Source: Candidatus Omnitrophota bacterium
GTDB taxonomy: Bacteria > Omnitrophota > Gorgyraeia > JAZDFF01
Length of the DNA stretch: 64,000 nt
Reading direction: 5' to 3'
NCBI GenBank assembly: GCA_043808095.1
Contig: JAZDFF010000015.1
Coordinates: 2,015 to 66,014 of the forward strand
This document shows, one piece after another, positions 7,080 to 62,900 of the stretch. The notes beneath the pieces are model-generated. The model searched no databases and was not told where the DNA came from. It worked only from the letters and a program-made list of their open reading frames with translations. How positions within the stretch are numbered: the stretch's first letter is position 1; each line of letters starts with the position of its first letter. Both the position numbers and the translations under genes were made by a program.

Positions 7080-7320
7080 TCGCTAAAGCTTCGGTGGGCA
7101 GTCCGCTGTAGCTGAAGGCGAAAGCACTTCAGCGAAGGCGGACGCAAAAGTACAGAAATAAATTTGCAGTTTTGCTGACTTTTGCGGTTTTGCGGTAATT
7201 TTGCGTCCTTCGATTACACTCAGGACGCAATCCTGAGCCCTTCGACTCGCTCGCCTCTGGCGAGCTCGCTCAGGGCGAATACTGAGCTTGTCGAAGTAGA
7301 GCACAGTCGAATGGATTGCG
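7080..7320. repeat. GC-rich, stem-loop-dense intergenic element (family copy 1) flanked by ACCGCAAAGACGC / TTTGCGGTAATTTTGCG inverted words
   Basis: Local GC is far above the ~35% background. Several hairpins are readable: gcccacc...ggtgggc, gctgaag...cttcagc, gcgtcc...ggacgc, gctcgcc-tct-ggcgagc. It shares cttcgc / agcttcgg / gcgaaggcgga words with 62580-62900. Confidence 0.45.
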
Positions 7321-7321
7321 A

Positions 7322-9109
7322 TTATTGCTCTAATTGCAGCTGATAAAGCCGCTGGTACAGGCCGCCTTTTTTAAGGAGCTCTTCGTGACTGCCTATTTCC
7401 TTAATCCTGCCTTTATCCATGACCACGATGCGGGTAGCGTTCCTTACCGTAGAAAGCCTATGTGCCACAATAAATACTGTGCGATTGGCGATTAAGGAAT
7501 CCAGGGCCTGTTGTACTATCTTCTCTGAGGCGCTGTCTAGTTGAGAGGTCGCTTCATCGAGGATAAGTATGGAAGGATCTTTTAAAAGGGCGCGGGCAAT
7601 GGCTATACGCTGCCTTTCTCCTCCTGATAACTTCATTCCCCTGTCACCGATAAGGGTATCATAGCCAAGCGGTAACTTAGAAATAAACTCATGGGCATAG
7701 GCCTTTTGGGCTGCCTCCATTATCTTACCGATAGAAACCTGGGGATTTCCATAGGCGATATTTGCCTTTATGGTGTCATTAAAAAGGATGGTCTCCTGAG
7801 TGACTATGCCTATCTCTCGTCTCAGGGATTTTAAGGTTACCTCTTTAAGATTAAAACCGTTGATTAAAATCTCTCCTTTTTGCGGGTCGTAAAAACGCGG
7901 TATCAGATCTACTAACGTGCTTTTTCCGACTCCGCTTGGCCCCACAATAGCAACTACCTCGCCGGCGTGTATCTCTAGGTCAATATCAGAAAGGACTTCT
8001 TCCTGTTCGTACCTGAAGGATACCCCCTTAAAGACTATGTCCTTATCAAATTTAGGCAGGGTATCCTCCGCGCCGGTTTCTACAACCTTGGGCTGAGTAT
8101 CCAATACCTCGTGGATGCGCCTTGAGGCTGCCAGGGCCTGCTGATTAATGGAATTTACCTGGCTTAATTTCTTAAACGGCCGGATTAACATTAAAAGACA
8201 GGCCAAAAAGAAAGAAAATGTCCCGAACGACATCCTGCCGGCAATAACCTCTCTACCTCCCCAGTAAAGCAGGAATACACCTATTATTGCTCCGATAAAT
8301 TCAGTGAGAGGCCCTAAAAAGAGATTGCGTTTTATCGATTTAATAGCAATTTTATAATAATCCTGGTTATTCCTGCCGAATTTCTCTATCTCGTAGTTTT
8401 CCATAGAGAATGCCTTGACGATCCTAACCCCTAAAATAGTCTCATATAAAAGAGAGCTTATATCAGCCATTTTAATCTGGGCCTTCTCAGAGAGTTTCCT
8501 TAGGATCTTGCCTACTTTTATGATCGGGAAACTTATTAAAGGTAATAAGATAAAACTAATAGCCGCTATCTTCCAATTGATATAAAATGCCCAGAAAGTA
8601 TAGAGGACCACTAAGGAGGACTGATAAACCAGGTCGGTTATGCCGTAAGAAACCGCATTCTCGACGAGCCTCACGTCGTTGGTTATCCTTGACATAATCT
8701 CTCCGCCTCTTTTATGGGTGAAATATTCCAAAGACAAGGACTGTATCTTTTTATATAGGGAATTACGGATATCCCTTACTACAAGCTGGCCGATATCAGA
8801 CATAAAATAACTATGAAAATAGGTGACAACTCCCTTAATAAGGATTAAGACGGGGATTACTATGACCATCAGCTTAATCATTTCAAGTGGGGCCAGGCCG
8901 TTTAAAAAGACTATCAAATTATTTAAAAAATCGGGTAATTTAACCGATACGACTATTGACCTATTGGAAAAGACCTTATCCAGTATGGGGATCATCATGG
9001 CTAATTGGATATTTTCCAAAAAGGCCGATAAGACCATAAAGACAATGGCCAGGTTGAATTCCGCCCGATGCGGCTTTACGAACTTAAGTAACCGGGAAAA
9101 TTCACTCAT
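7322..9109 (-). CDS. ABC transporter permease/ATP-binding protein, MsbA-like (lipid/lipid A exporter family)
   Basis: 595 aa. N-terminal 6-TM exporter domain, then Walker A GPSGVGKST, ABC signature LSGGERQRIAIARAL and Walker B ILILDEATS. Confidence 0.8.
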   Translation of the reverse strand: MSEFSRLLKFVKPHRAEFNLAIVFMVLSAFLENIQLAMMIPILDKVFSNRSIVVSVKLPDFLNNLIVFLNGLAPLEMIKLMVIVIPVLILIKGVVTYFHSYFMSDIGQLVVRDIRNSLYKKIQSLSLEYFTHKRGGEIMSRITNDVRLVENAVSYGITDLVYQSSLVVLYTFWAFYINWKIAAISFILLPLISFPIIKVGKILRKLSEKAQIKMADISSLLYETILGVRIVKAFSMENYEIEKFGRNNQDYYKIAIKSIKRNLFLGPLTEFIGAIIGVFLLYWGGREVIAGRMSFGTFSFFLACLLMLIRPFKKLSQVNSINQQALAASRRIHEVLDTQPKVVETGAEDTLPKFDKDIVFKGVSFRYEQEEVLSDIDLEIHAGEVVAIVGPSGVGKSTLVDLIPRFYDPQKGEILINGFNLKEVTLKSLRREIGIVTQETILFNDTIKANIAYGNPQVSIGKIMEAAQKAYAHEFISKLPLGYDTLIGDRGMKLSGGERQRIAIARALLKDPSILILDEATSQLDSASEKIVQQALDSLIANRTVFIVAHRLSTVRNATRIVVMDKGRIKEIGSHEELLKKGGLYQRLYQLQLEQ

Positions 9110-9287
9110 CCTCTTATAGCTCCTTTTAATATCCTAGCAATATTAAGCCTTATAATACTATCATATGCATTGACTTTTGTCTAATGTTTTGATACTATTA
9201 AACGCGAATACACGCGAATCTAACGCTAATGGTCGCGAATTTAGATATTAGCGTTAATTCGCGAAAGATCTAGCGAAAATTAGCGTT

Positions 9288-10232
9288 ATGGTAAAAAAAA
9301 TCCCAGTTGGAGTTATCGGAGTAGGCTATTTAGGGCTTCGGCATGCCCAGACTTATAAACAACTGCCCCAGGCCGAGCTTGTGGCTATCTCGGATATTGA
9401 TGAACATAGGCTTAAGGAGGCATCTTCAACTCTAAATGTAAATAGCATTAGCCAATACCGAACGCTATTTAGCAAGGTAAAGGCAGTCAGTATCGCCACC
9501 CCCACCATCACCCATTATGAAATCGCCAAAGACTGCCTTAGGCACGGAATTGACGTCCTCATTGAAAAACCCATTACCACTGGCCTTGTTGATGCTGCCT
9601 CATTAATCAAACTCGCCCAAAAAAACAAGCTCATCTTACAAGTCGGCCATGTTGAGAGATTTAACAGCGCTTTTTTGGCGGTCTCAAAAATAGCCAAACA
9701 CCCCCGTTTTATCGAATGTCACCGCTTAAGCCCGTTTCCCGGCAGGTCCCTGGATATCGGCGTGGTCGAAGACCTGATGATCCATGATATCGATATTATC
9801 CTGGGCCTGGTAAAATCCGAAATTAAAGAAATCTCTGCTGTGGGCGTAAATGTCCTGACGCCTTTTGAAGATATTGCCAATGCCCGGCTGGTCTTTAAGG
9901 ACGGCTGTGTCTGTAATCTGACCGCCAGCCGTATCAGCGACGAACCCATGCGTAAATTCAGGATTTTTTTAGAAGATACCTATATATCTTTGGATTACAA
10001 AAACCAGGCGGCGGATGTCTATAAAAAGATAGGCGGTAAAATTCATAAAACCCAGCTTCCTGTTGAAAAAGACCAGCACCCTCTGAAAAGAGAACTGCAT
10101 TCCTTTCTCGACTGTGTCGCCAGCCGTCAATGCCCCACGGTTTCCGGCATCGAGGCCTTTAAAGCGCTATCTGTAGCCTTAAAGATTAAAGAGAAGATCC
10201 GTCGGAATATCGAGAAATCTGGTAGAAAATAA
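9288..10232 (+). CDS. Gfo/Idh/MocA family NAD(P)-dependent oxidoreductase
   Basis: 314 aa with an N-terminal Rossmann fold (IPVGVIGVGYLGLRHA) and the family's EKP motif. Transcribed divergently from the MsbA-like gene and immediately upstream of lpxB. Confidence 0.75.
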   Translation: MVKKIPVGVIGVGYLGLRHAQTYKQLPQAELVAISDIDEHRLKEASSTLNVNSISQYRTLFSKVKAVSIATPTITHYEIAKDCLRHGIDVLIEKPITTGLVDAASLIKLAQKNKLILQVGHVERFNSAFLAVSKIAKHPRFIECHRLSPFPGRSLDIGVVEDLMIHDIDIILGLVKSEIKEISAVGVNVLTPFEDIANARLVFKDGCVCNLTASRISDEPMRKFRIFLEDTYISLDYKNQAADVYKKIGGKIHKTQLPVEKDQHPLKRELHSFLDCVASRQCPTVSGIEAFKALSVALKIKEKIRRNIEKSGRK

Positions 10233-10466
10233 GGATGAAATAACTGATCAAAATTTCTAATTCCTAATGCCGAATGCCTAATGAATGCTTAAATTCTTAA
10301 ATGAATAATTTCGCATTAGACATTTAGACATTAAAAAATTAATTAGAAATTAGCCTGCTTGCCCCGAGAAATTCGTAGAATTTCCGGGACTAAAGTCTTT
10401 AGGAATTTTACAAAGTAAAATTCCTAAGGTCCGTCAGGCAGGGATTTAGTAATTAGTCATTAAAAT

Positions 10467-11612
10467 ATGTCTAAGAAAATTATTATAGTGGCCGGTGAGG
10501 CCTCCGGGGATTTACACGCCAGCCTCCTGGTCAAATCCCTAAAAAGCGCTAGCAACGTCAATATGGAATTCTTTGGTCTGGGTGGGACTAAGATGCAGGA
10601 GGCAGGCGTCCATATCTATTACAACACCATCGACCTTGCGGTAGTAGGAATCTTTGAGGTCTTAAAAAATCTCGCTAAGTTCAAGGAGATCTTCCGGCAA
10701 CTGCTTTATAAGATCGATGAAATAAAACCTGACCTGGTTATCCTCGTGGACTACCCCGGATTTAACCTTCGCCTGGCCAAAGAGGTCAAAAAAAGAAATA
10801 TCCCTCTAATCTACTACATCTCTCCGCAGGTCTGGGCCTGGGGAAGGTCGCGCATAAAACAGATTAAAAAATATGTTGATAAGATGATCGTTATCCTGAG
10901 GTTTGAGGAGACCTTTTATCAGTCTTACGGGGTTGATGCCGTATTCGTCGGCCATCCGCTTCTAGATATTGTTAAAACTAATTTTAATAAAGATGAGTTA
11001 TTAAACTCACTTTTACTTGATAAAAAAAATACCACCATTTCTATGCTGCCCGGCTCAAGAGAAACAGAGGTAAGGACGCTGCTTCCGATAATGCTTGAGA
11101 CAGCCAGGCTTATCTCTAAAAAATTACCCGAAAGTCAATTTCTGATTTTAAAATCCGCCTCTTTAAAAGAAGGGTTGTTTCAGGCCATTATGGCAAGATA
11201 CCCCCAGATTAATACGAAGCTCATCAACAACCTGACCTATGAAGGGATAAATGCATCAAACCTGGCCATTGTCGCCTCGGGAACCGCCACACTTGAGACG
11301 GCAATACTGGAAAAACCTATGGTTATTGTCTATAAGGTAAATTTTTTAACCGGATTATACTTAAGGTGGGCAATTAAAATTCCCTACGTAGGATTAGTAA
11401 ATGTAATTATGGGAAGGAAATTTATCCCTGAATTTATCCAGTACCAGGCAAGGCCCGGTAAAATCGCCAGGGAAGTTTTATCCATTCTTGGGGATTCAGA
11501 AAGAATCGCGGCTTTAAAAAGGGAACTCCGTTTCTTAAAAAGCCAACTGGGTTCTTCAGGAGCTACCGAGCGCGCAGCCAAAGAAATATTAAAATTTCTC
11601 GCCAAAAATTAG
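10467..11612 (+). CDS. lpxB: Lipid-A-disaccharide synthase
   Basis: 381 aa. IIIVAGEASGDLHASLL N-terminus and overall GT19 architecture. Confidence 0.85.
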   Translation: MSKKIIIVAGEASGDLHASLLVKSLKSASNVNMEFFGLGGTKMQEAGVHIYYNTIDLAVVGIFEVLKNLAKFKEIFRQLLYKIDEIKPDLVILVDYPGFNLRLAKEVKKRNIPLIYYISPQVWAWGRSRIKQIKKYVDKMIVILRFEETFYQSYGVDAVFVGHPLLDIVKTNFNKDELLNSLLLDKKNTTISMLPGSRETEVRTLLPIMLETARLISKKLPESQFLILKSASLKEGLFQAIMARYPQINTKLINNLTYEGINASNLAIVASGTATLETAILEKPMVIVYKVNFLTGLYLRWAIKIPYVGLVNVIMGRKFIPEFIQYQARPGKIAREVLSILGDSERIAALKRELRFLKSQLGSSGATERAAKEILKFLAKN

Positions 11613-11616
11613 TCTC

Positions 11617-12771
11617 TTAAAATTTTCCGACAAACCTCTTCATCCTCTCCAAGGCCTCTTTAAGACTATCTAAACTTGAGGCATAAGAGATACGGATGTA
11701 GCCTTCTGCGCAGGCCCCGAATGCGACTCCGGGCACAACCGCAACACTCTCCTCTTTAAGAAGGCGTCTGGAAAACTCTAAAGAACTCAAGTTGGTGGAT
11801 TTCATAGAAGGGAATATATAAAAAGCACCTTGGGGCTTGGTGCACTTCAGGCCGATTTTATTTAAGCCCTGCCAGATGAATTCCCGGCGTCTCAGGTACT
11901 CCTTTTTCATTTCCTCGACGGATTTTCTTCCGCTGACCAGCGCCTCACATGCAGCCATCTGGCTGGTTATCGGAACGCACATTATGGTATATTGATGGAT
12001 CTTGGTCATTGCGCTAATTACGTCTGAGGACCCGCAGGCAAAACCAACGCGCCATCCGGTCATAGCATAACCTTTGGAAAAACCGTTAAGACAAATAGTG
12101 TTTTTCTTTGCGCCGGGTAAAACCGCAAAAGGCACATGTTCAAAATCGTAAGTAAGGTCCCCATAGATCTCATCAGAAATACAGAGTATTTTATTCTTAA
12201 GTAATATTTTATTAAGCTGGCCTAATTCTTTCCTAGTGTAAGAAACTCCTGTGGGATTTGTGGGATAATTTAAGATAATGGCCTTGGGCTTTGGGCCGAC
12301 AAATTTTTCCAATAGTCTTGGCGTAAGTTTAAAACCGGTCTTTGTGGTATCAATATAAACAGGTACGCCACCTGCGAGCTCTGTAAGCGGACCATAAGAA
12401 ACATAGCTTGGAACAGGAATCAGGATTTCATCGCCTGGATTAATTAGTGCCCTTAAAGCAAGGTCCAGACCTTCGCTTGCTCCTACGGTAATCAGGATAT
12501 CATCTTCCGGGCTATAATTAAGGCTGTATCTGTTTTTTAGATAACGACTGATGCTTAGCCTTAACTTATAAAGCCCTTTATTTGAGGTATAACTAGTGTA
12601 GCCCTGCTCCAGGGAATAAATCCCGGCCTCGCGGATCTGCCAGGGCGTGACAAAATCAGGCTCACCGACCCCCAGAGAGATAACATCCTTCATCCCCAGG
12701 ACCAAATCAAAGAATGCCCGGATACCCGAGGGTTGCATCTCTTGAACTTTTTTAGAAATAATCATTTTCAT
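11617..12771 (-). CDS. Pyridoxal-phosphate-dependent aminotransferase, class I/II (AspAT-like)
   Basis: 384 aa. Carries the SFSKGYAMTGWRVGF Schiff-base lysine motif of class I aminotransferases. Confidence 0.8.
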   Translation of the reverse strand: MKMIISKKVQEMQPSGIRAFFDLVLGMKDVISLGVGEPDFVTPWQIREAGIYSLEQGYTSYTSNKGLYKLRLSISRYLKNRYSLNYSPEDDILITVGASEGLDLALRALINPGDEILIPVPSYVSYGPLTELAGGVPVYIDTTKTGFKLTPRLLEKFVGPKPKAIILNYPTNPTGVSYTRKELGQLNKILLKNKILCISDEIYGDLTYDFEHVPFAVLPGAKKNTICLNGFSKGYAMTGWRVGFACGSSDVISAMTKIHQYTIMCVPITSQMAACEALVSGRKSVEEMKKEYLRRREFIWQGLNKIGLKCTKPQGAFYIFPSMKSTNLSSLEFSRRLLKEESVAVVPGVAFGACAEGYIRISYASSLDSLKEALERMKRFVGKF

Positions 12772-12901
12772 TTTTGTTACTATTGGTTACTATGGATTAC
12801 TAAATGCCGGCTTAAAAAAGTCTTGTTACTAAGGGTTACGTAACTTTTGGTAACAGCGAAGCGTAGTAACTTTCAGTAACCTTTAGTAACTTTTCTTAAA
12901 C

Positions 12902-13387
12902 TCAATACGATATTGCTATTCTTTTATTTTCTTCTTTTCTCTTTAGAATTACTCCGTCTTCTTTATATTTCTTTAATAAAAAGTGCGTCACGGTACCGCG
13001 TACATTTTCCATGGGCGAAAGTTTCTCGGCTACAAAACTAGCTACGGTGTGAATATCACGACCCTCAACCACTAAAAGCAGATCATAGGTCCCTGAGAGG
13101 AGATAACAACTGGTTACCTCAGGAAACTGATAAATACGCTCTGCCAAATGGTCGAACCCTAAGTCTTTCTGAGGCACGACATTTACCTCAATAAGCGCTC
13201 TAACGCCAGAATCGCGATCGCGCATCAATTCTTTATTGATTACGGTCTTATACTTTAAAATGACCCCGTCCTTCTCGTATTTCTTTATCGCCTCTCTTAC
13301 CTTATTTGTTTTTTTCTTGGTGAGTCCGGCAATCTCTTCGGGGCTAATACGCGCATCGTTTTCTAATAATTCTAATATCTTGTCCAT
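12902..13387 (-). CDS. Lrp/AsnC-family transcriptional regulator
   Basis: MDKILELLENDARISPEEIAGLTKK... is a HTH-AsnC N-terminus followed by a RAM domain. The ORF-track 25-codon hydrophobic extension was trimmed. Confidence 0.7.
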   Translation of the reverse strand: MDKILELLENDARISPEEIAGLTKKKTNKVREAIKKYEKDGVILKYKTVINKELMRDRDSGVRALIEVNVVPQKDLGFDHLAERIYQFPEVTSCYLLSGTYDLLLVVEGRDIHTVASFVAEKLSPMENVRGTVTHFLLKKYKEDGVILKRKEENKRIAISY

Positions 13388-13501
13388 CTTTCCCTCCCTT
13401 GCAACCGCAAAAAAAAAACGCAAAATAATCCCTAAAATAAGCGCTCTTTGCAAATAACGCAAAATTTTTGCGGATTTTGCGGAAAATTATTCATTTATAA
13501 C

Positions 13502-13924
13502 TTAAAGATTATTTACAATTCTTTTTATATCCAGTCTTTTCTTAGCAAAATTTAATATCAGCCCTAGCCTCTTATTTGTTGTTTTAAGATAAGATATCAT
13601 TTGCGCCTCATGTATTTCATTTATTTCCGATACAGATTTTAACTCTATCATAACTTCATTTTCTATCATAAAATCTATACGTTGATACCCCAATTCTAAG
13701 TTTTTATAATGAACTCCTATATTTGCTTCTTCTACAAAATTAATCCCATTCTTTTTTAATTCATAGACAAGGGCTTTCTGATATATCTTCTCTACAAAAC
13801 CCGGGCCTAGATTCTTATGGACTTCAATTGTCAAACCAATTATCTTTTTACTGAGAGTATTGATTTCATCCTCAGTCATCCTGGTCATCTTTGCGATCTT
13901 TGCGGTTGCAATCTTTTTATACAT
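13502..13924 (-). CDS. GxxExxY family protein (PD-(D/E)XK-like)
   Basis: 140 aa. Signature LGPGFVEKIYQKAL (G-x-x-E-x-x-Y). A paralog lies at 61028..61402. Confidence 0.7.
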   Translation of the reverse strand: MYKKIATAKIAKMTRMTEDEINTLSKKIIGLTIEVHKNLGPGFVEKIYQKALVYELKKNGINFVEEANIGVHYKNLELGYQRIDFMIENEVMIELKSVSEINEIHEAQMISYLKTTNKRLGLILNFAKKRLDIKRIVNNL

Positions 13925-14636: not shown

Positions 14637-14646
14637 ATATAAATAA

Positions 14647-14678
14647 TGATGCCCGTCTTATTAAACGGGCATCTTCGC
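14647..14678 (-). terminator. Possible hairpin terminator (gatgcccgtttaataagacgggcatc) after the small ORF at 14803..14985
   Basis: 8-bp GC-containing inverted repeat followed by an A/T-rich tract on the minus strand. The U-tract is not clean. Confidence 0.3.
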
Positions 14679-14802
14679 CCCACTTGAAAGCCTATTCATA
14701 AGGGGCGCATCTATTTACGTTGCTGCCTGACGGTGAGACAGGCATATATTCTTTTATTCTTATGTATTTAAAATATGAAATAATCTAAACCAGGATAGAC
14801 TG

Positions 14803-14985: not shown

Positions 14986-15194
14986 ATCTAATCCTCCTTT
15001 CCTTTATAAATAGGGCTTCACAAAAATCGTTCAGCCCTTGATTACAGAGATTAAGAATAGATTCCAAAGATTAGTATTCGAAGATAAATCGCTGTAATCT
15101 TTTTTAAAATCACTGGAATCATAGGCTGGAACGACTTTCATGACAGCCTATTATAAACCTACTTTAGTTATTATATAAATATATATAGCCTGTG

Positions 15195-27390: not shown

Positions 27391-27392
27391 AT

Positions 27393-53726: not shown

Positions 53727-53738
53727 ATTGGAATGGTA

Positions 53739-55670: not shown

Positions 55671-55744
55671 ATTATTTTAACTTACTCACTTACTCATTAT
55701 AATAAAGATTAACGAAATTGTCGAATAAAACAATCATTTAGATT

Positions 55745-56539
55745 CTATTCAAAACCTTTTATCTCTTCTTGAACAATATCATCGTCTATAAGGTCAAACT
55801 TTTTGATAAATCCTGCCAAGAGGCACATATCGCATAGACGGTTAATTCTACGTGGTATACCGCCAGAATAATTGTAGATTGAACGAAGGGCTCTTTCAGA
55901 AAAAATCGCGGCTGTGCGATTGGCAACCTGCAAGCGGTGAACAATATATTTTATGGAATCTTCCGGGGTTAAGCCGTCTAAATGGGCCTTTACATTAATC
56001 CTCTGCTCTAATTGTATATTCTCTTCAATTTTCTGCTTTAATTCTGGCTGGCCCAAAAGCAATAATGTTAAAAGAAATCTGTCTTGCAGTTGAAAATTTA
56101 AAAGCAGCCTTATTTCTTCAAAGACATTCTCGTCATTTATGGCGTGTGCCTCATCAATAATAACTACGGTTTGTTTACCGTTTCGCATATTGTTTAATAA
56201 CGCGTCATTAAGAATGTTCAAAACATCTGCTTTTCTTAGGGGGGCAGGATTGCCTAATTGATAAAGAATCATCCTTAAAAGCTCGATATCATCGAGCTTG
56301 GGATTAGCTATAAAGGCAGTTTTATACTGCTCGCTGCTGAGTTCCTTTAATACTGCTTGAGCAAGCATAGTCTTACCACAGCCAAATACACCCGTAAGCA
56401 TAGCTGCGCCCATCTTCTCTCTTACGGTATAGATAAGACGCATTAATGATTCCTCGTGTTGACTTGAACGATAAAGAAAACGCGGGTCAGGGGTATTTTG
56501 AAATGGCTTCTGATTTAGGCCCCAATATGCTTCGTACAT
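55745..56539 (-). CDS. ExeA/GspA-like AAA ATPase (EPS-locus type)
   Basis: 264 aa. MYEAYWGLNQKPFQNTPDPRFLY, GVFGCGKT and VIIDEAH. Confidence 0.75.
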   Translation of the reverse strand: MYEAYWGLNQKPFQNTPDPRFLYRSSQHEESLMRLIYTVREKMGAAMLTGVFGCGKTMLAQAVLKELSSEQYKTAFIANPKLDDIELLRMILYQLGNPAPLRKADVLNILNDALLNNMRNGKQTVVIIDEAHAINDENVFEEIRLLLNFQLQDRFLLTLLLLGQPELKQKIEENIQLEQRINVKAHLDGLTPEDSIKYIVHRLQVANRTAAIFSERALRSIYNYSGGIPRRINRLCDMCLLAGFIKKFDLIDDDIVQEEIKGFE

Positions 56540-56675
56540 AGTTTAAAAGACTGCTGAAAAATACTTTTTAACGCGAATAATCGCTAATCTAACGCGAATT
56601 CTCGCTAATTCTATTTGCGAAAACTAGCGTTTGATTCGCGTAAATTAGCATTTAAACCATTATTCAACACTCCCT

Positions 56676-57581
56676 TTGACAATAAACCCTAACCCTGCTA
56701 TTATAAGCTCAATGATGGATTTATCTATTATCATCGTCAATTATAATGCCAAAGATGTTTTAAGTCAATGTCTAAATTCAATTTACGACAATACCAAAGA
56801 CGTTGATTTCCAGATAACTGTTATTGACAATGCTTCAGGAGATGGCAGTCCGCAAATAATAAGGCAAAGATTCCCTCGCGTAAAATTAATCCAAAATAAT
56901 GTAAATTCGGGCCTGACCCAAGCGCAAAACCAGGGTTTAAAGCTGGCACAAGGTAAATATCTTCTGCTCCTGAATAACGACACCTACTTACAACCTCAAG
57001 CCATAAATAAACTGATAGAATTTATGGACCAAAACCCCGACGGAGGGATTGCCGGGCCAAGAATTTATACTAATGCAAATATACAAATTTCATTTGCCTG
57101 GATGCCGAAAAATCCCCATTTATTTCTGCCCTATATTTTGTTCAAGAAGCTGTTTCTAAATTACGAATTGAGAAGGCATAACTACAATCTAAATAACAAC
57201 CTAGAGGTAGACTATGTTTCAGGCGCTTGTCTAATGATACGCAAGACAATTATGGAAAATATTGGCTATATGGACGAGGGCTATTTTGTCTATAACGAAG
57301 ATGATGACTTATGCCTGCGCGTAAGACAAAAAGGTTATAAGATTTATTACCTACCTGAAGCAAAAGTGATTCATCTGCGAGGAAAAGGCGGCGGTGGGTT
57401 ACACCCCTACAGGATGATCCTTGAAATTCATAAGGGGATATTTAGACTGTATAGAAAATTTTATCCTAAGCCAAATTTTCTTCTGGACACTCTTATTTTG
57501 GGGATGTTAACACTTAGGCTGGGGTTAGCGATTATTATTCAATCCGTACGCTCTCTCAAGAGACTGTTTTTCCGTTCCTAG
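56676..57581 (+). CDS. Glycosyltransferase family 2
   Basis: 301 aa. LSIIIVNYNAKDVL...LLNNDT (DxD-like) in a GT-A fold. The only plus-strand gene in the right half. Confidence 0.75.
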   Translation: MTINPNPAIISSMMDLSIIIVNYNAKDVLSQCLNSIYDNTKDVDFQITVIDNASGDGSPQIIRQRFPRVKLIQNNVNSGLTQAQNQGLKLAQGKYLLLLNNDTYLQPQAINKLIEFMDQNPDGGIAGPRIYTNANIQISFAWMPKNPHLFLPYILFKKLFLNYELRRHNYNLNNNLEVDYVSGACLMIRKTIMENIGYMDEGYFVYNEDDDLCLRVRQKGYKIYYLPEAKVIHLRGKGGGGLHPYRMILEIHKGIFRLYRKFYPKPNFLLDTLILGMLTLRLGLAIIIQSVRSLKRLFFRS

Positions 57582-58710
57582 ATAAATTCAAAAAAATTTT
57601 AAAAGGCCGCAGGATATAACTGATATATGCCTTTAAATAAGATTTCGCAGGATAACGATATCTGAGTAATCCCTTATCCGGAAAAATATTGCTAATGAGC
57701 AATTTAATCAGGCTACCTGTTGTATCAAACATCAGGAATTGAACAAGATAGCTGACCTTGCCTAAATCTTCTTCCTGCCAGATATAGTCTTTTTTTAGAA
57801 TGCGGGAAATGACTTTCTTTTTTAACTTAGAGGGTGAGAATTTTTGTATAATTTCACCCTCTATCGGCGCACCTAAGATATCTTTACAATAACTCAGGCA
57901 ATAATAAATCATATTCTTTGTTCCCGATTCATTGGCGGTCTTTAATAATTTATCCCACGAAATGCTCTCTTTATAGACCTCAAGTATTCTTTTGATATCA
58001 TACAGCCAGATAATATTTTCGAAAAAATGAATCATGGTTAAATGCAAGGACAAATACAGGATATTATCTTCGACTGATAAACCCAGACAATCTAGACCTT
58101 CAATCTTAAAATTTACTGCTCGTCTGTAAAACATAATTTCGTCGATATTCAAAACTCTATTAAATTTATTATGTAGAACTTGCCAATGTATTTCTATAAG
58201 CAACTTGGCCGATAAAGTAAGACTGTCATCCCCATTTCGGCTATAAATGATAGAACCGAAGTCCCGTGTACTTATTTTATAACCCAGCCCTTCAAGACAT
58301 TTTTCAGTAATATCCAATTGCCCCGGCAATATCAGTATATCAATATCAATCATTGGCCTTAAACCGGGATTGTCCCCGTATACGCTATTTATAAGAGCTG
58401 TCCCTTTTAGAATAATTGACCTTATGCCTAATTTGTCTAGCGCCTTGAGTATTTTTGCCAATTCTCTAAGCGCAAGGGTATTTTGGGTTAGGACGCAATA
58501 ATAGTTGTTTTCGAGATCTTTCCTGATTAAATCAGGGACCGAAAGAAGCAAATTTGCCTTTTTTAAATTATAAAAGATAACAGTAGCTATGCCTTTCTTC
58601 TTAGCCAATCCCACAAGATAAGACCAATCTTCGTCTTTAACATTAGCTAAGGTATCTGGGTTTATTTTGCCGTTTAAAAGTTCTAAGATGATTTTTTTGG
58701 GAAGGTCCAT
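57556..58710 (-). CDS. Nucleotidyltransferase-family protein (PF14907-like)
   Basis: 384 aa. Helical N-terminal region followed by a GTALINSVYGDNPGLRPMIDIDILI (G...D.D) nucleotidyltransferase-fold motif. Assigned by pattern memory only. Confidence 0.45.
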   Translation of the reverse strand: MDLPKKIILELLNGKINPDTLANVKDEDWSYLVGLAKKKGIATVIFYNLKKANLLLSVPDLIRKDLENNYYCVLTQNTLALRELAKILKALDKLGIRSIILKGTALINSVYGDNPGLRPMIDIDILILPGQLDITEKCLEGLGYKISTRDFGSIIYSRNGDDSLTLSAKLLIEIHWQVLHNKFNRVLNIDEIMFYRRAVNFKIEGLDCLGLSVEDNILYLSLHLTMIHFFENIIWLYDIKRILEVYKESISWDKLLKTANESGTKNMIYYCLSYCKDILGAPIEGEIIQKFSPSKLKKKVISRILKKDYIWQEEDLGKVSYLVQFLMFDTTGSLIKLLISNIFPDKGLLRYRYPAKSYLKAYISYILRPFKIFLNLSRNGKTVS

Positions 58711-58765
58711 TTATGGGATGATTTTAATAAACCTGAAAAGGCATTTTAAACGCTAATTTTCGCGA

Positions 58766-58781
58766 ATCTAACGCTAATATT
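58766..58781. promoter_or_regulatory. 16-bp perfect palindrome AATATTCGCGAATATT within a CGCGAAT-word promoter-region repeat
   Basis: Read directly. Lies upstream of the nucleotidyltransferase-like gene start (58710). The same region carries GAATCTAACGCTAAT, which is also present at 9216..9230. Confidence 0.5.
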
Positions 58782-58851
58782 CGCGAATATTCACTCTATT
58801 ATTAGCGTAAATTCGCGTTTGATTAGCGAGAATTCGCGTTCAAGAAGGTTT

Positions 58852-60600
58852 TTAGAGATCTCTTTGTAATTTTGCAAATTCTAAGTTTTTATATTCTAAC
58901 GAGTCGAGGAATTCTTTAGTGCTACTTATTATAATTTCATTCTGGCTTTTTAAGAAATAAACCCGATCAACAAAATTTAACATACTTAACCGATGCGAAA
59001 TAATTATGCAGGTAAGATTTTTTCTTTTGCCTAACAACTCTTCCAGTATCCTTGTCTCTGAGCTGACATCTAATGAAGAAAGTGCTTCATCAAGGATAAG
59101 TATGGCCGGCTTTTTGATGACCGCCCTGGCAATAGCAATACGTTGCTTCTGGCCTTCAGAAAGTAGAGTAGCATTCTCTCCTATCTTAGTATCATATTTC
59201 TGAGGCAATTCATTAATAAAACTATCGATACCGGTTAATTGTGCCACGCTCATTATTTCATCTTGCGTTGCATTCGGTTTTCCATATTTAATATTGTTTT
59301 CAACTGTATCGTTCCACAAAAATGGCTCCTGGAGGGCAATTCCAATCTGCTCGTAGAGCGCCTCAAACTTTATTTTTTCTAGATTATTGCCGTCAATAAA
59401 AATCTCGCCATTCTGTGGCTCAAATAACCTTAAAATTAGATTTATGATAGTGGTCTTACCGCATCCAGATGGCCCGATAAGGGCAATATGAGTCCCTGGC
59501 TCTATCCTAAAATTCATATTTTCCAGGATAGGCTTTTTATCGCCGTAGGCAAATCTAACCTCTTTAAAGACAATCTCGCCTTTAGTAAACTTAACCAGCG
59601 AGGCATCGGGACTTGCCTTTATCTGCGGCTCTTGACTTAAGATCTCATCTATCCTTGAACAAGAAAGTGTCCCCATAGCTACTTGCTGGAAAAAGTTGGC
59701 AAATCGTGATTGCAGGCCAAATAGTTGGTTGATATAAAGCATTATGGCGGTCAGGCTGCCGAAAGTTAGCCGGCCTTTAATCACCCAGTATCCTCCATAG
59801 AAAAAGATTATTCCGCTAACCAGGCGGGACATAACATTACCGCTAAAACTACTCATCGCCCCTAACTTCGTAGTCTTTTTGGATAATTTTAGATTAATGA
59901 TTAGTTGTCTTAAATAGGCCCTGAATTCATTTATCTCTTTTCCAAAAGCCTTGACTAACTGGATATGCGAAAAGACCTCAGCCAGGCGTTCGTATATGTC
60001 TTGAGAATTTTTAAAGAGTTCCTCATAGAGGGTTTTTAGCCTCTGCATAAAATAATAAGGCACAAAATATAAAAATGGAATCAAAAATAAAGATAATAGA
60101 GCGAGTTGCCTGTCCAGATAAAAGATAATTGCGAAGATAAACAAGGTGCGCGGCAAGATGGTTAAAATCTCTGAGAGCGATGAAGTAATAAAACTAATTA
60201 CCCTGTCTATATCATAACTAATCCTGTAGATATGCCCTCCGGTAGATTTTTCCTGGAAGAAGGAAAAGGAAAGTTTAGTTAAATGACCAAAGACCTTTTT
60301 ATGTAAGTCGAATCTTAACTTTAAATTCAGATAACTGCTAAGGTAGGTGGTTGCGGCATTGAGCAGTCCCGTCAATATAAACAATCCGCCCATGGATAAG
60401 CCGATAATGATAAAAAAGGTCGGGTCTTTGGCTAAGAGACCTTTATCAATAAGCAATTTGCTTAAATACGGGTTCGCCAGGCCAAAGACAACAGCTACTT
60501 CCCCTAAGACAATTACCAGAAGTTCTGTCTTCCAGTAAGGTAAGAGGAACTTGGCAAATTTTAGAAAAAGCCTGAGATCTTCTTTTTTAAGTTGCTGCAT
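58852..60600 (-). CDS. ABC exporter, fused permease/ATP-binding protein
   Basis: 582 aa. 6-TM exporter domain, Walker A GPSGCGKTT, signature LSEGQKQRIAIARA and Walker B ILILDEALS. No C39 peptidase domain. Confidence 0.8.
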   Translation of the reverse strand: MQQLKKEDLRLFLKFAKFLLPYWKTELLVIVLGEVAVVFGLANPYLSKLLIDKGLLAKDPTFFIIIGLSMGGLFILTGLLNAATTYLSSYLNLKLRFDLHKKVFGHLTKLSFSFFQEKSTGGHIYRISYDIDRVISFITSSLSEILTILPRTLFIFAIIFYLDRQLALLSLFLIPFLYFVPYYFMQRLKTLYEELFKNSQDIYERLAEVFSHIQLVKAFGKEINEFRAYLRQLIINLKLSKKTTKLGAMSSFSGNVMSRLVSGIIFFYGGYWVIKGRLTFGSLTAIMLYINQLFGLQSRFANFFQQVAMGTLSCSRIDEILSQEPQIKASPDASLVKFTKGEIVFKEVRFAYGDKKPILENMNFRIEPGTHIALIGPSGCGKTTIINLILRLFEPQNGEIFIDGNNLEKIKFEALYEQIGIALQEPFLWNDTVENNIKYGKPNATQDEIMSVAQLTGIDSFINELPQKYDTKIGENATLLSEGQKQRIAIARAVIKKPAILILDEALSSLDVSSETRILEELLGKRKNLTCIIISHRLSMLNFVDRVYFLKSQNEIIISSTKEFLDSLEYKNLEFAKLQRDL

Positions 60601-60697
60601 TTCGTCTATTTTATTAACGGATGCATACGCCTACCAACAAGGCAGACAGGGATTTCTGCGAATTCGCTTGTTTGACTATCTGATAAAGTTAAAGGGC

Positions 60698-60937
60698 TTA
60701 AGAAGATGCAAAGCCTGAGAACGTGGACTCGCCGTAATCACCGCGTGCCGCAGTGTCTACTCCGTACTTCCCCTTGATCAGTAAATCGCCCTGACACAAC
60801 GTCCTCAGCGAACTTAGCGCGAACACGCCTTCGACTATGAATCCGACCCCTGTATAGCACTGGCAGCTCAACACTGCCTGCTCAGGGTTAAGTTTTACCC
60901 GGGTGATTTCGGGTCTGAATTTAGGTCGTCTGGACAT
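60698..60937 (-). CDS. Small GC-rich ORF (79 aa, Cys-containing) of unknown function; candidate precursor peptide or small protein
   Basis: Strong SD GGAGGTGA 4 nt upstream of ATG (MSRRPKFRPEITRVKLNPEQAVLSCQCYTGVG...). Local GC ~50% versus ~35% in neighbours. Sits between the GxxExxY/rSAM-SPASM genes and the ABC exporter. Confidence 0.4.
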   Translation of the reverse strand: MSRRPKFRPEITRVKLNPEQAVLSCQCYTGVGFIVEGVFALSSLRTLCQGDLLIKGKYGVDTAARGDYGESTFSGFASS

Positions 60938-61027
60938 TGGTTCACCTCCATTTTTGAACACAAATTTTCACGAATTAATATACGAAAATTCTAAGATTTA
61001 TCGAATTTACACGAATAATTTTTGTTT

Positions 61028-61402
61028 TCAAAAGATGTGTCGTTTTATTTCTATTTTGTCTGACCCAAGGTTAACTAAGTAACCTAACTTATATTCAGAA
61101 CCCTTTAGATAATGATAAAGTTGTAACTCAAAAACTTTAGGCATATGCAAAACCGATTTCAACTCGACAACAATCTTATCCTCTATAATAAAATCGGGTT
61201 CATAAAAGCCAACTTCTTTACCTTCGTATTCAACCTTTAACCTTCTCTTTGAATTATATCTTATCTTTTGCTTATCAAACTCTATTTTTAACGCTTTATG
61301 ATAAATCTCTTCTTTATGTCCCGGTCCGAGTGTATTATAAACTTTATAAAAACAACCAACTAACTTGTACGATAATTCCTTATATAGTATTTTCTCGGGC
61401 AT
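61028..61402 (-). CDS. GxxExxY family protein (PD-(D/E)XK-like), paralog of 13502..13924
   Basis: 124 aa with signature LGPGHKEEIYHKAL. Confidence 0.7.
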   Translation of the reverse strand: MPEKILYKELSYKLVGCFYKVYNTLGPGHKEEIYHKALKIEFDKQKIRYNSKRRLKVEYEGKEVGFYEPDFIIEDKIVVELKSVLHMPKVFELQLYHYLKGSEYKLGYLVNLGSDKIEIKRHIF

Positions 61403-61469
61403 ATATTCGTGTTAATTCGGCTTTTTATTCGTGTTAATTCGTGTCCAGATTCGTATTCATTCGAAAAAA

Positions 61470-62543
61470 TTAGTGAATATTCGTGCTTAAATGCGCCAAC
61501 TCGCAAAACCACTCCACCGGTTTCTCTAAACTGCCGGTTTCAAGATACGCTCTTCCAGGACAACTGAAACACATCTTTCTCAGGGAACAACTGCTACACC
61601 TTCCATTACTAGATGATCTCTGTATCCATACCCAGTCTAAAATCTGTTTTTGGGCCTCCTTGACTTCTTCTTTTAGCAAATTTATCTTCGGTTTTCTGAT
61701 ACAACTGCAAGGAAAGATATTGCCATAGGGATCGATGCTGATGCCATCGCCTCCTCCTATGGCACAACGGAACAACTTGGTATTTGGCCTGGGGTTTTTA
61801 TCATAAAGCCTGCGACCTGTTCCATCAGTTAATTTTTCACAATCCTCATCTCGTAACTTTTTTCTTCCATCCAAACTAAAAACCTCTTCTGGCTTTATGC
61901 GCAAATCACAGGGTGTTAACTCCTGGTTTAAACGGGCATGGATATAAGGACTGGGACGAAATTTTATCCCCAAATTCCTTATGAATCTTTTTACCTTTGG
62001 CATCTGGCCCAAATTCTCATTTATCACCATGGTCTTAATCTTGAGAGGAATATTTCGCTTCTTTATCATCTTTATACCTTCAATCGCCTTTTTAAATGAG
62101 CCTCTAACCTGTGTAATCTGCTCATAGACATTTTTTGTTATCGCATTTAGAGTAATTTCAATGACAAAGGGAGGCGATTTTGCTAAATAGTCGGCTATTT
62201 CTCTAGTCATAGAAAAGCCATTAGTAAAGATAGTGATGATAAAACCCTTATCTTTTGCGTAAGAGTAGATTTCTAAAAAGTCTTTTCTGGTCAAAGGGTC
62301 GCCTCCGGTAAAACAAAGCCAGATAATCCCATAATCTCTTACCTTATCCAACAAAGATTTTACCTGGCCAGTGGTCAGCTCCTTTTTTAAATATCGGGGT
62401 TTATTGTAACAATCACAGTAGCAATAGTTACAATGGAGCCCGCAGCCGAAGGTCAATTCAAACTGGCAGACATTGATGCGCTTTATGCGCCAATTAATCT
62501 TATGCGTCTTGAGACTAAAGTTCTTATACCGGATTTCTCTCAT
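61470..62543 (-). CDS. Radical SAM / SPASM-domain maturase-like protein
   Basis: 357 aa. CGLHCNYCYCDC (CxxxCxxC) and C-terminal SPASM Cys cluster CSSCSLRKMCFSCPGRAY. Confidence 0.75.
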   Translation of the reverse strand: MREIRYKNFSLKTHKINWRIKRINVCQFELTFGCGLHCNYCYCDCYNKPRYLKKELTTGQVKSLLDKVRDYGIIWLCFTGGDPLTRKDFLEIYSYAKDKGFIITIFTNGFSMTREIADYLAKSPPFVIEITLNAITKNVYEQITQVRGSFKKAIEGIKMIKKRNIPLKIKTMVINENLGQMPKVKRFIRNLGIKFRPSPYIHARLNQELTPCDLRIKPEEVFSLDGRKKLRDEDCEKLTDGTGRRLYDKNPRPNTKLFRCAIGGGDGISIDPYGNIFPCSCIRKPKINLLKEEVKEAQKQILDWVWIQRSSSNGRCSSCSLRKMCFSCPGRAYLETGSLEKPVEWFCELAHLSTNIH

Positions 62544-62579
62544 TTTGTATCGCTATAAATCATAGGTTAAGAATTTACC

Positions 62580-62900
62580 CTTAGCATTTTAAATTTACCC
62601 GCCTTCGCAGAAAGCTACGACCGTAAGGCCATAGATGAATGCCAAGCGGGTAATCCGCCGAAGTCCGTCTTCGCTCAATTGCTTTCGCATTGAGCTTCGC
62701 CGAGATCCCGCCGAAGTCAAACACGTTAAGCGTTTGACGTAGGCGGACCAAAAACGAAAGTATTTTGGCGAAGGCGGATACTGCTTCGGCGGGTTTCGCC
62801 GAAGTTCTCCTTCGCTCTTTGAGCTTCGGAGAAATCTTGCCGAAGCCTTGGCGTAGGCAGACATGTGAAGATGCTATGGCCGTTAGGCCATAGAGCTTCA
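62580..62900. repeat. GC-rich degenerate tandem-repeat / stem-loop element (family copy 2) bounded by inverted ggccatag words
   Basis: Internal ~40-50-bp degenerate repeats (ccgccgaagtc...cttcgctc...agcttcg..gagat). Hairpin gtcaaac-acgttaagc-gtttgac. Shares cttcgc / agcttcgg / gcgaaggcgga words with 7080..7320. The ORFs called inside it (106 and 89 aa) look spurious. Confidence 0.45.

Follow-up and report, generated by a model that had tools for sequence, protein, structure and literature searches.

Two GC-rich, hairpin-dense intergenic islands in an Omnitrophota MAG are probably BIME-like mosaics of mobile REP-like hairpin repeats that lack the GTAG/CGTC tag. Both islands lie in the window, a stretch of 64 kb. 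Two hairpins in inverted orientation, together 57-84 nt long, appear to form the mobile unit, which resembles a REPIN.

The GC content is 0.53 in element 1 (7060-7320; 0.62 in its core, 7071-7144) and 0.51 in element 2 (62580-62900), compared to 0.25-0.30 in the adjacent spacers and 0.38 in the whole window. Both elements fold better than all shuffles on both strands (MFE z-scores on the plus and minus strands: -7.5 and -6.1 for element 1, -8.6 and -7.7 for element 2). The density of CTTCG/CGAAG reaches 10 per 200 nt, with about 0.3 expected. The words GCGAAGGCGGA and AGCTTCGG are present in both elements. Thus the high GC content, the hairpin density and the shared words described in the initial annotation are all real. 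Positions 7089-7143 of element 1 align with the reverse complement of 62663-62716 of element 2 (78% over 55 nt); within the alignment, the GCGAAAGC apex is conserved and the stem around it has changed in a compensatory manner. Both islands begin right at a stop codon between co-directional genes, and all flanking genes are on the minus strand.

The recurrent unit is a hairpin module consisting of a 5-7 bp GC-rich stem, a TTC or TAC triplet (GAA or GTA on the other strand), the dinucleotide GC, a variable apex (in which another hairpin may be nested), GC again, a second triplet and the closing stem. The triplets are non-complementary, with TTC/TAC on one strand and GTA/GAA on the other. The TTCG motifs, initially placed in the hairpin loops, are part of this 3x3 internal loop and the GC clamp, not of the apical loop. 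The modules are mostly arranged as inverted doublets (dyads) of 57-84 nt, three of which occur in the 64-kb window. The element 1 core and the three doublets by which copies of element 2 differ are composed of a hairpin of the TTC..TTC type (Ha) and a hairpin of the GAA/GTA..GTA/GAA type (Hb).

We defined the T1 hairpin family as YCCGCC-TTC-GC-NNAAA-GC-TAC-GGCGGR. A covariance model, R1, was built from 35 copies, all of them in other phyla. Its top three matches in the 64-kb window, with filters off, are all inside the elements: 7072-7102 on the plus strand (E 1.9e-4), a local match at 62603-62619 (E 9e-4) and 7101-7142 on the minus strand (E 8e-3). The strict module grammar occurs four times in the window, always within the two elements, with 0.09 occurrences expected, and 11 of the 16 half-site matches fall inside 0.9% of the sequence. 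The sixth stem pair of T1 covaries (T-A in 19, C-G in 11 and T-G in 6 of 42 copies, that is, 36/42 paired), and the window stem CCCACC/GGTGGG is compensated relative to the T1 consensus CCCGCC/GGCGGG. Inner cores with other flanks have at least five of six flanking positions paired in 21% of cases, compared to 0.7% in slid controls, and these paired flanks comprise many different stems. Judging by the aligned copies, the T1 stem is maintained by compensatory changes.

Because the flanking genes are all on the minus strand, element 1 follows msbA and precedes the rpsB promoter; the initial placement upstream of an envelope operon was incorrect. Its core is a doublet at 7072..7143 on the plus strand, supported by R1 matches, strict grammar matches and folding (-42.6 kcal/mol, z -5.8). 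It consists of hairpins Ha (7072-7099, GCCCACC-TTC-GC-TAAA-GC-TTC-GGTGGGC) and Hb (7101-7143, GTCCGCT-GTA-GC-(19-nt nested GAAA-loop hairpin)-GC-GAA-GGCGGAC). The msbA-proximal part B (7204..7320, no strand assigned, fold z -4.0) contains three GC-rich hairpins, at 7204-7229 (GCGTCC-TTCGATTACACTCA-GGACGC), 7231-7277 (CCTGAGC...GCTCAGG with inner GCTCGCC/GGCGAGC) and 7240-7296 (outer, CTTCGAC/GTCGAAG). Model R1 gives no match to part B; positions 7206-7226 are identical to 5837-5857 of locus L056 (21/21).

The core is enclosed by an AT-rich palindrome (7017..7208, no strand) whose arms, 7017-7073 and 7140-7208, are made of CGCAAA/TTTGCG words. A second palindrome of the same words (6819..6909, no strand, fold z -5.5) lies between the rpsB ribosome-binding site and a promoter-like site for rpsB, TTGCCA-17-TATATT (6979..7007, minus strand, 10/12 matches). 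The latter is located between the two palindromes, downstream of element 1, and is directed away from it towards rpsB. In the closest relative of the host (L125, MsbA 77% identical), the orthologous spacer has a nearly identical rpsB promoter block, retains the second palindrome in the same position and keeps the arms of the first one. The centre of the latter is AT-rich and has no GC hairpins; both the core and part B of element 1 are missing. In the more distant relatives L126 and L128 the msbA-rpsB spacer is about 105 nt long and the second palindrome is missing as well.

Inverted repeats do frame both elements, as reported initially, but the ACCGCAAAGACGC...TTTGCGGT frame of element 1 (7059-7073/7184-7198, 87% complementary) derives from the first palindrome, and the comparison of spacers indicates that this frame belongs to an older AT-rich structure. 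A MITE with terminal inverted repeats and target-site duplication was rejected, as the would-be terminal repeats of element 1 are palindrome arms that are present without the GC-rich insert in L125. The same kind of word palindrome also flanks two GxxExxY nuclease genes in the window.

Element 2 is located between two co-directional radical SAM genes. A second copy was found in a different assembly at an unrelated locus, L004, and these two copies of the composite are the only ones known. Blastn yields four HSPs with 90-100% identity, and nothing else is common to the window and L004; this homology sets the limits of the whole composite (62591..62902, no strand). The inverted-repeat frame is 62615-62634/62874-62893, and the ends carry a self-palindromic hairpin.

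The terminal module (62596..62651, plus strand; from the local R1 match at 62603-62619 and folding) contains the 5' half of a T1 hairpin (CCCGCCTTCGCAGAAAGCTACG), a nested decayed hairpin CTAYGGCC-GTAA-GGCCRTAG and a closing GCGGGT; it is also present in L004 at 6169-6215. It is followed by dyad 2 (62664..62747, plus strand, 84 nt, fold z -4.5), which is homologous to the element 1 core. The first hairpin of dyad 2 is of the TTC..TTC type with a nested GCGAAAGC-apex hairpin inside, and the second is CCGCC-GAA-G-(nested hairpin)-C-GTA-GGCGG. The next block (62748..62804, no strand) belongs to the framework and is identical to L004 6029-6085 in 57/57 positions. Dyad 1 (62805..62861, plus strand, 57 nt; supported by a grammar match) reads TTCTCC-TTC-GC-TCTTTGA-GC-TTC-GGAGAA and then TTGCC-GAA-GC-CTTG-GC-GTA-GGCAG. 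It has 92% matches and the same stems as positions 6118-6187 of a similar island in a Ca. Saccharibacteria MAG (L020). The terminal hairpin (62863..62901, no strand, GTGAAG-..-CTATGGCC-GTTA-GGCCATAG-..-CTTCAC) lies immediately next to the stop codon of the radical SAM gene upstream and has a conserved counterpart at the equivalent end of the copy in L004. Tandem Repeats Finder detects no array of the 40-50-bp tandem units described initially; there are instead the two paralogous doublets, which start at a distance of 141 nt from each other (62664-62747 and 62805-62861).

The two copies of element 2 differ by three precise doublet indels. Dyads 1 and 2, whose boundaries follow from the alignment, occur only in the window and are missing from L004. 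Both are located exactly at the same 9-mer, CGCCGAAG^C. A single intact T1-type hairpin, L004 6054-6096, is split by dyad 2 in the window. No direct repeats or target duplications flank dyads 1 and 2 when the window is compared with L004, and no consistent duplication flanks the whole element in the two copies; nor were target-site duplications seen at the inverted-repeat boundaries. Relative to transcription, the framework is oriented oppositely in the window and in L004. Among the three options suggested initially, a MITE-like element is the closest one, given the existence of other copies, the presence/absence difference at an orthologous locus and the site-specific indels. However, the mobile unit appears to be a doublet of 57-84 nt nested into mosaics, not the whole island bounded by the inverted repeats, and no target-site duplication is seen.

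Further copies were sought and found beyond the L004 composite, together with the covariation in the T1 stem. A core-motif scan of GTDB species genomes yielded at least 120 loci in more than 10 phyla. The listed matches come from Verrucomicrobiota, Lentisphaeria, Patescibacteria, Nitrospirota, Acidobacteriota, Planctomycetota, Bacteroidota, Proteobacteria and Chloroflexota, and the 120 listed are all from MAGs or SAGs. There are several copies per genome in other MAGs, often at contig ends, and no matches in the plasmid and phage collections. In 74 loci, the genes next to the T1 hairpin have housekeeping functions and are unrelated to one another, and neither a gene family nor a transposase recurs among them. 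Single T1 hairpins are sense in 12 cases and antisense in 5, according to crude ORF calls, and those in the window are antisense; the doublets have the same orientation relative to flanking genes in 4/4 cases. No transposase or RAYT was seen in the 64-kb window, and there is no TnpA or TnpB near the islands. The family has no Rfam entry and was not found in the literature searched.

REPs are intergenic 20-40-bp palindromes with 6-13-bp stems that occur in high copy, often as inverted dimers or clusters behind ORFs; the window hairpins agree with them in size, stem, dimers, clusters and position, and more than one copy per genome is seen in other MAGs. The architecture and placement of published REP classes are similar: the inner loop, flanked by GC, varies in length and contains nested pairing, non-complementary di- or trinucleotides set it off from the stem, and the copies are dimerised or clustered, for the most part behind ORFs in co-directional gene pairs (PMC3733652). 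In particular, the GTAG-3, GTAG-14 and GTAG-15 REPs, including E. coli REP/PU (Di Nocera et al. 2013, PMC3733652), are likewise imperfect intergenic palindromes of 20-45 nt. Their stems of 5-9 bp have alternative complementary variants and G-T pairs, and non-complementary di- or trinucleotides separate the stem from a GC-flanked inner loop that is variable in length and sometimes self-complementary. Besides singles there are inverted dimers and clusters, usually on the 3' side of ORFs and between co-directional genes, and some families are common to distant organisms (PMC3733652). On the other hand, the present hairpins have no unpaired terminal GTAG/CGTC tag: single T1 copies end in a (G/A)CAAG-like tail, and GTA-G is found within the internal loop, on the purine strand. 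The inner core, together with the CAAG-like 3' tail of singles, is conserved rather than the stem. Further, these hairpins occur in Omnitrophota and, according to the scan, in more than 10 phyla, with all listed matches in MAGs or SAGs, and have no known associated RAYT.

As in REPINs, the doublets of REPs that RAYTs mobilise (Bertels & Rainey 2011, PMC3116915), two hairpins in inverted orientation form the indel unit, which is 57-84 nt long. Like BIMEs, the mosaic REP clusters of enterobacteria, the islands combine doublets and singles with short linker motifs. Both are non-autonomous and insert without target duplication. However, nesting into apical loops of other copies is prominent here, and, in contrast to a REPIN, the doublet is not one long perfect hairpin because its two hairpins have different stems. 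The resemblance extends to transposition of the IS200/IS605 family and of PATEs, its non-autonomous derivatives: imperfect hairpins are recognised, insertion takes place immediately 3' of a short defined sequence and leaves no target duplication (here twice after CGCCGAAG), and the orientation follows the direction of genes or replication (here 4/4 doublets). But there is no TnpA/TnpB near the islands, and the present elements are far shorter than PATEs.

A mechanism can be proposed on this basis. Doublets would insert at particular short sequences (twice at CGCCGAAG^C), leaving the target unduplicated, and may also enter the centres or loops of pre-existing palindromes; repeated events of both kinds would create nested, hairpin-dense islands. 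The inserting activity would be a single-strand DNA enzyme that recognises hairpins and acts in trans, its gene being located elsewhere in the genome; it may be a HUH transposase of the RAYT/IS200-IS605 type or an analogue. After insertion behind msbA and between the co-directional radical SAM genes, the hairpins would be transcribed and, like REPs, may at most secondarily block 3' exonucleases or partially insulate cistrons from each other. In principle, the indels could instead have arisen by precise excision. Moreover, the conserved core, covarying stems and near-identity across phyla exceed simple copy-and-paste and could reflect selection for function.

A possible but unlikely alternative is that the hairpins are primarily selected cis-acting mRNA structures (3'-end protectors, processing sites or insulators after msbA and between the radical SAM cistrons), with the conserved GAA/GUA 3x3 internal loop serving as a protein-recognition motif, and that their spread is secondary. 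The very stable folds on the transcribed strand, the start of both islands at stop codons between co-directional genes, the conserved core with stems that covary across phyla and tolerate G-T pairs, and such roles being known for REPs (PMC3733652) are consistent with it. The uniform orientation of the four doublets points in the same direction but is not significant. However, the element 2 framework is inverted relative to transcription between its copies, single T1 hairpins have no clear strand preference (12 vs 5), no intrinsic terminators (GC-rich hairpin followed by a T-run) occur in either island region, and the closest relative has no such hairpins at the same locus.

GxxExxY (PF13366) and four-helix-bundle families occur in 23S rRNA intervening sequences. 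Those cassettes have a long imperfect inverted repeat around a variable centre, and in the window word-repeat arms enclose two GxxExxY genes and, at 7017-7208, the element 1 doublet. The GC hairpins are distinct from the cassettes, element 2 has no arms, and no rRNA is involved. One reading, which we consider decidedly unlikely, is that the invariant core (TTC-GC...GC-TAC; GUA/GAA on the other strand) is the recognition element of a hairpin-targeting system widespread in mostly uncultivated bacteria, that doublets insert at CGCCGAAG^C and palindrome centres, and that the same machinery, possibly the GxxExxY PD-(D/E)XK nucleases, builds and fills the word palindromes.

It is even more doubtful that the GC hairpins are cargo or relics of elements carrying GxxExxY (PD-(D/E)XK) genes, with the palindrome as a vehicle whose centre is empty or holds the nuclease gene or hairpin doublets, and with the nuclease mobilising or targeting it. 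Indeed, the element 1 core is at the centre of a CGCAAA-word palindrome, both GxxExxY genes of the window are between word-repeat arms, one with the same TTTGCGG words, the cassette at 61028-61402 is an insertion relative to related operons, and a minority of hairpins from other phyla lie within locus-specific word repeats (e.g. L026, L047, L073). However, element 2 has no such arms, the enrichment of word repeats around T1 copies from other phyla is weak (19% vs 12%), no GxxExxY gene occurs in about 190 loci examined, and the neighbours of the hairpin include no recurrent family.

The initial suggestion of a small structured ncRNA family or riboregulator is highly improbable. Strong predicted structure and GC-rich regions in an AT-rich genome would agree with it, but it is not supported because Rfam yields no match, the orientation is not fixed, the neighbours and gene contexts are unrelated across phyla, and the premise about gene order was wrong. 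The Rfam scan of the window and 12 related loci gave nothing at the gathering score and only microRNA/snoRNA noise at E up to 10. There is no promoter-like site inside or in front of either island, the only one nearby being 6979-7007, which points towards rpsB. The modular indels are incompatible with one conserved tertiary fold, and the modules are missing at the orthologous locus of L125. Finally, the ORFs of 73, 89 and 106 aa, open on the minus strand, are almost certainly not real or decayed genes and, as initially thought, are artefacts: they have no Pfam or NCBIfam match, the 73-aa ORF has no match among 5.8 billion proteins and the 106-aa ORF a single weak one, this being the same DNA element annotated as an ORF antisense to the neighbouring genes, and the indels of 57 and 84 nt split and rearrange any frame next to a block identical in 57/57 positions, without synonymous-site variation.

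If the islands are indeed mosaics of mobile REP-like repeats, one small hairpin family is dispersed through many phyla of mostly uncultivated bacteria, including the genome-reduced Patescibacteria, and acts as a site-specific mobile element for which no transposase is known. In such MAGs, this would account for islands of high GC content, for spurious ORF calls and for breaks between contigs. The search for the enzyme could start from a defined recognition core and from an insertion site, CGCCGAAG^C, that is precise and testable. Strong hairpins inside operons (msbA-rpsB and the radical SAM/ABC peptide cluster) may alter mRNA stability. If the hairpin-targeting system exists, it would link the cross-phylum GC hairpins, the locus-specific word palindromes and the "intervening-sequence" proteins.

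The window is bacterial (GC 38%), and nearly all of its genes lie on the minus strand. The protein search showed that the MsbA-like ABC transporter encoded at 7322-9109 has a 100% identical counterpart in a Candidatus Omnitrophota MAG, and its next relatives come from Omnitrophota too. Element 1 (7060-7320) lies between the msbA stop codon and rpsB-tsf-pyrH, element 2 (62580-62900) between two co-directional radical SAM genes, 62901-63917 and 61470-62543. The initial annotation described both as GC-rich, hairpin-dense islands in AT-rich spacers, and this was confirmed: GC is 0.53 in element 1 (0.62 in its core, 7071-7144) and 0.51 in element 2, against 0.25-0.30 in the adjoining spacer, and both elements out-fold dinucleotide shuffles on both strands (z -6.1 to -8.6, no shuffle equal). 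The pentamers CTTCG/CGAAG reach up to 10 per 200 nt, with about 0.3 expected. The words reported as shared are present; over 55 nt, 7089-7143 and the reverse complement of 62663-62716 agree at 78%, with a compensatory stem swap, AGCTGAAG/CTTCAGC vs AGCTCAAT/ATTGAGC, around the identical apex GCGAAAGC. The tandem units of about 40-50 bp suggested for element 2 were not recovered by Tandem Repeats Finder.

The GC-rich hairpins have one common grammar. A basal stem of 5-7 bp is followed by a non-complementary triplet (TTC or TAC; on the opposite strand GAA, GTA or GGA), a GC clamp, an apex formed by 4-7 variable nucleotides or a nested hairpin, a second GC clamp, a triplet, and the complementary stem. 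Strict search of the 64-kb window found four distinct modules, all within elements 1 and 2 (0.09 in shuffles), and the 580 nt of the elements contain 11 of the 16 half-site matches of the window. The modules form doublets of two hairpins with inverted cores, Ha (TTC..TTC) and Hb (GAA/GTA..GTA/GAA), separated by 1-3 nt. Such doublets are the core of element 1 (7072-7143) and, in element 2, dyad 1 (62805-62861, 57 nt) and dyad 2 (62664-62747, 84 nt, with nested apical hairpins). Predicted folds reproduce exactly the Ha and Hb hairpins of all three. The msbA-proximal part of element 1 (7204-7320) contains three further GC-rich hairpins of a looser but related form.

A second copy of element 2 was reached in an ENA contig, L004, via the spurious 106-aa ORF of the element, the single "protein" match among 5.8 billion. 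There the composite has an unrelated gene of 284 aa on one side and an FKBP gene on the other, and the similarity to the window is confined to the element. The two copies have a common framework, including a block identical at 57 of 57 positions, and differ by three precise indels, each of which is one doublet. In CGCCGAAG^C, both window-only doublets separate the G from the C, and both end in GTAGGCRGA; the candidate target word is CGCCGAAGC. They are accompanied by neither target duplications nor slippage-type flanking direct repeats, and one of them interrupts a hairpin whose L004 counterpart (6054-6096) is whole. For the doublet unique to L004, the junction is ambiguous by 4 nt (GATG). Relative to its flanking genes, the framework has opposite orientations in the window and in L004. 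In all four doublets, nonetheless, Ha precedes Hb when read on the strand opposite to the genes, which is suggestive only. In a comparison of synteny around element 2, the upstream radical SAM gene is not kept beside the SPASM gene in relatives.

At the other locus, the gene order lpxB-gfo-msbA-rpsB-tsf-pyrH-frr is kept in Omnitrophota. In relatives whose MsbA is 65% identical, msbA and rpsB are about 105 nt apart, and the spacer has a plain promoter-like sequence. In L125, the closest relative (MsbA 77% identical), the spacer is long and shares the scaffold of the window: two AT-rich palindromes of CGCAAA/TTTGCG words and, in between, a nearly identical promoter-like block (TTGCMA-17-TATATT, 7007-6979 on the minus strand in the window). 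The GC-rich hairpins are absent from the L125 spacer, where the centre of palindrome 1 is AT-rich and the msbA-proximal stretch is an AT-rich 47 nt. Inverted repeats do frame both elements, as had been proposed; since L125 has the palindrome without the GC-rich hairpins, the frame of element 1 is an older palindrome and not the terminal inverted repeat of the GC-rich element. Judging from this comparison, the element-1 doublet is inserted into the centre of that palindrome.

Relatives of the hairpins occur far beyond Omnitrophota. A scan of genome collections with the 21-nt core CCGCCTTCGCNNAAAGCTACG yielded at least 120 loci in Verrucomicrobiota, Lentisphaeria, Patescibacteria, Nitrospirota, Acidobacteriota, Planctomycetota, Bacteroidota, Alpha-, Gamma- and Deltaproteobacteria, Chloroflexota, and others. 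Among the matches listed (L005-L124), all come from MAGs or one SAG and none from a cultured isolate; genomes often contain several, and many are at contig ends. Their hairpin consensus, T1, is YCCGCC-TTC-GC-ATAAA-GC-TAC-GGCGGR-CAAG. In several phyla it is found with a second type, CCGCC-GAA-GC-CTTG-GC-GTA/GGA-GGCGG, and the two together make a doublet like those of the window, e.g. in the Acidobacteriota loci L099, L107 and L109. R1, a covariance model built from 35 foreign copies and run over the window without filters, has its top three matches at 7072-7102, 62603-62619 and 7101-7142, the last including 15 nt inserted at the apex. Across 145 kb of contigs from Omnitrophota and relatives, chosen independently of the motif, R1 matched in L004 only, and the family is therefore sporadic rather than ubiquitous. 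When the modules were compared with all fetched loci, dyad 1 gave a 92% match with the same stems in a Candidatus Saccharibacteria MAG (L020), and the hairpin at 7206-7226 matched at 21 of 21 positions in another MAG, L056.

In L020, from a genome-reduced CPR bacterium, 6080-6235 is a GC-rich mosaic island much like element 2, with the same doublet of TTCTCC and CTTGCC stems and a terminal T1 hairpin. In Lentisphaeria RGIG3841/RGIG5592 and Victivallaceae MAGs (L007, L014, L015, L019 and about 45 more loci), T1 sits within a repeat of over 120 nt, ..TTGTCAAAGCGCCCTC..GGGAGCGTTTTT-[T1 hairpin]-GCCTGTTACCTTGCAGGTAGCA.., which is present in high copy number and stands at the start or end of many of their contigs. 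In L091 (about 1-180), T1 and second-type hairpins lie between the 3' end of a tRNA gene and a duplicate of the same 3' end (GGTTCGATCCCAGCCCGGCTCACC), an arrangement that looks like an integration scar. Among the loci L031 (about 4760-4980), L008 (6487-6541), L087 and L117 there are head-to-tail T1 arrays with a period of 32-34 nt, and arrays with the left half-unit three times followed by the right half-unit three times.

None of 72,556 plasmids or 50,697 phage records contained a match to the T1 unit, pattern scans of viral contigs gave only chance matches in GC-rich coding sequence, and a metagenome scan with a 26-mer of the conserved 57-nt block gave none. Literature searches for the hairpin sequence itself gave nothing relevant.

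The hairpin itself is maintained. The sixth stem pair, beside the fixed search pattern, is T-A in 19, C-G in 11 and T-G in 6 of 42 cases. When inner cores were chosen regardless of their flanks and the CCGCC class was excluded, 21% had at least five of six Watson-Crick flank pairs, compared to 0.7% with the partner slid. The paired stems all differ (TCCTCC, GTCGAC, CCTGCC, TCCGGC, TCCTAC, CCCTGC, ACCACC, CCCACC, TTCTCC); the inner core is thus conserved, and its stem covaries. A possible cause is recognition of the hairpin as a folded single strand (DNA or RNA), and arm-to-arm template switching in palindromes could contribute.

Rfam gave nothing relevant at the gathering score or at E up to 10. 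The sole promoter-like site near element 1 is downstream of it and faces rpsB, and none was found near element 2. At 74 loci, T1 is flanked by unrelated housekeeping genes, among which there is neither a recurrent family nor a transposase, and T1 orientation relative to flanking ORFs is an indecisive 12 vs 5, with stop-to-stop ORF calls too noisy in GC-rich MAGs. Of the initial interpretation, the repeat-like, non-coding character of the elements stands, and the riboregulator and the structured ncRNA gene are not borne out.

AT-rich word palindromes occur in many intergenic regions of the window (6819-6909, 10257-10335, 12776-12895, 56569-56650, 58749-58840). One arm consists of two to four tandem copies of a locus-specific 8-11-nt word (CGCAAA, CTAATGC, GTTACTA, AACGCGAAT), the other of the inverted complement; the z of their folds ranges from -2.3 to -5.5. 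The rpsB 5' leader contains one of them, in a position kept in L125. To our knowledge, such palindromes have not been described. Short word repeats also flank two minus-strand genes of the GxxExxY family (PF13366, PD-(D/E)XK nucleases): 61028-61402, with CACGAAT/ATTCGTG arms at 60950-61020 and 61402-61490, and 13502-13924, with CGCAAAA/TTTGCGG flanks at 13445-13485 and 13885-13905, the same words as around element 1. In related operons a peptide or ABC gene follows the rSAM/SPASM gene after 50-80 nt, so the 61028-61402 cassette is an insertion. A tie between the hairpins and these cassettes, which share the window, seems improbable: no GxxExxY genes were found in the fetched loci or viral contigs, and word repeats around T1 copies in other phyla are weakly enriched (19% vs 12%), for which reason no general link between hairpin and word palindrome is claimed. 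Literature searches gave nothing relevant on GxxExxY flanks.

Other readings were rejected. Protein coding fails, as had been suspected of the ORFs inside the elements: they have no family match and no homologues except the element itself (the 73-aa ORF had no match in protein space), and the 57- and 84-nt blocks differing between the element-2 copies split and rearrange every reading frame. An intrinsic terminator lacks its T-run, and integron attC, DGR hairpin, group II intron domain V, tRNA-derived and sarcin-ricin-like readings found no specific match.

Element 2 and the GxxExxY cassette interrupt a RiPP-like cluster on the minus strand (58852-63917) of radical SAM (62901-63917), radical SAM/SPASM (61470-62543), a small ORF with its own ribosome-binding site (60698-60940) and an ABC transporter (58852-60600). 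In relatives L133, L137, L140 and L147, the small ORF is conserved in its N-terminal part beside the SPASM gene. B12-binding radical SAM profiles match the 62901-63917 protein only from about position 183-244 onward, and therefore the N-terminal B12-binding domain is absent or the gene truncated. Between the gfo-type oxidoreductase gene and lpxB, 10344-10452 (plus strand) has a strong structure (-43.4 kcal/mol, z -6.0) in which an outer stem closes two long hairpins; it does not follow the GC-hairpin grammar and has no Rfam match.

REP families have been described in eight phyla (Di Nocera et al., PMC3733652), and the types GTAG-3, -14 and -15 described there are built like the window modules: a 6-9-bp stem, non-complementary di- or trinucleotides, alternative complementary stems, and a GC-flanked inner loop of variable length capable of self-pairing. 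They too form dimers and clusters, preferably downstream of ORFs, between co-directional or convergent genes. However, what defines the REP superfamilies is a terminal, unpaired GTAG or CGTC tag (PMC3733652), which the window modules lack, and thus we place the elements in neither. The doublet as moving unit has a parallel in REPINs, the mosaic build in BIMEs, and duplication-free insertion 3' of a fixed short sequence in IS200/IS605-type and RAYT chemistry. We consider it probable that the hairpin doublets are non-autonomous mobile DNA. They would be recognised as folded single strands via the invariant inner core and inserted in trans by a putative enzyme at short specific sites, palindrome centres or loops, and successive nesting would build the islands. 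The main rival, unlikely in our view, makes a role at the RNA level primary. The elements are a variant of the REP/REPIN/BIME-like kind, spread unusually widely across phyla and with a defined site of insertion. Within the msbA 3' region and the radical SAM operon the doublets are likely transcribed, and they may stabilise or insulate these transcripts, as REPs do.
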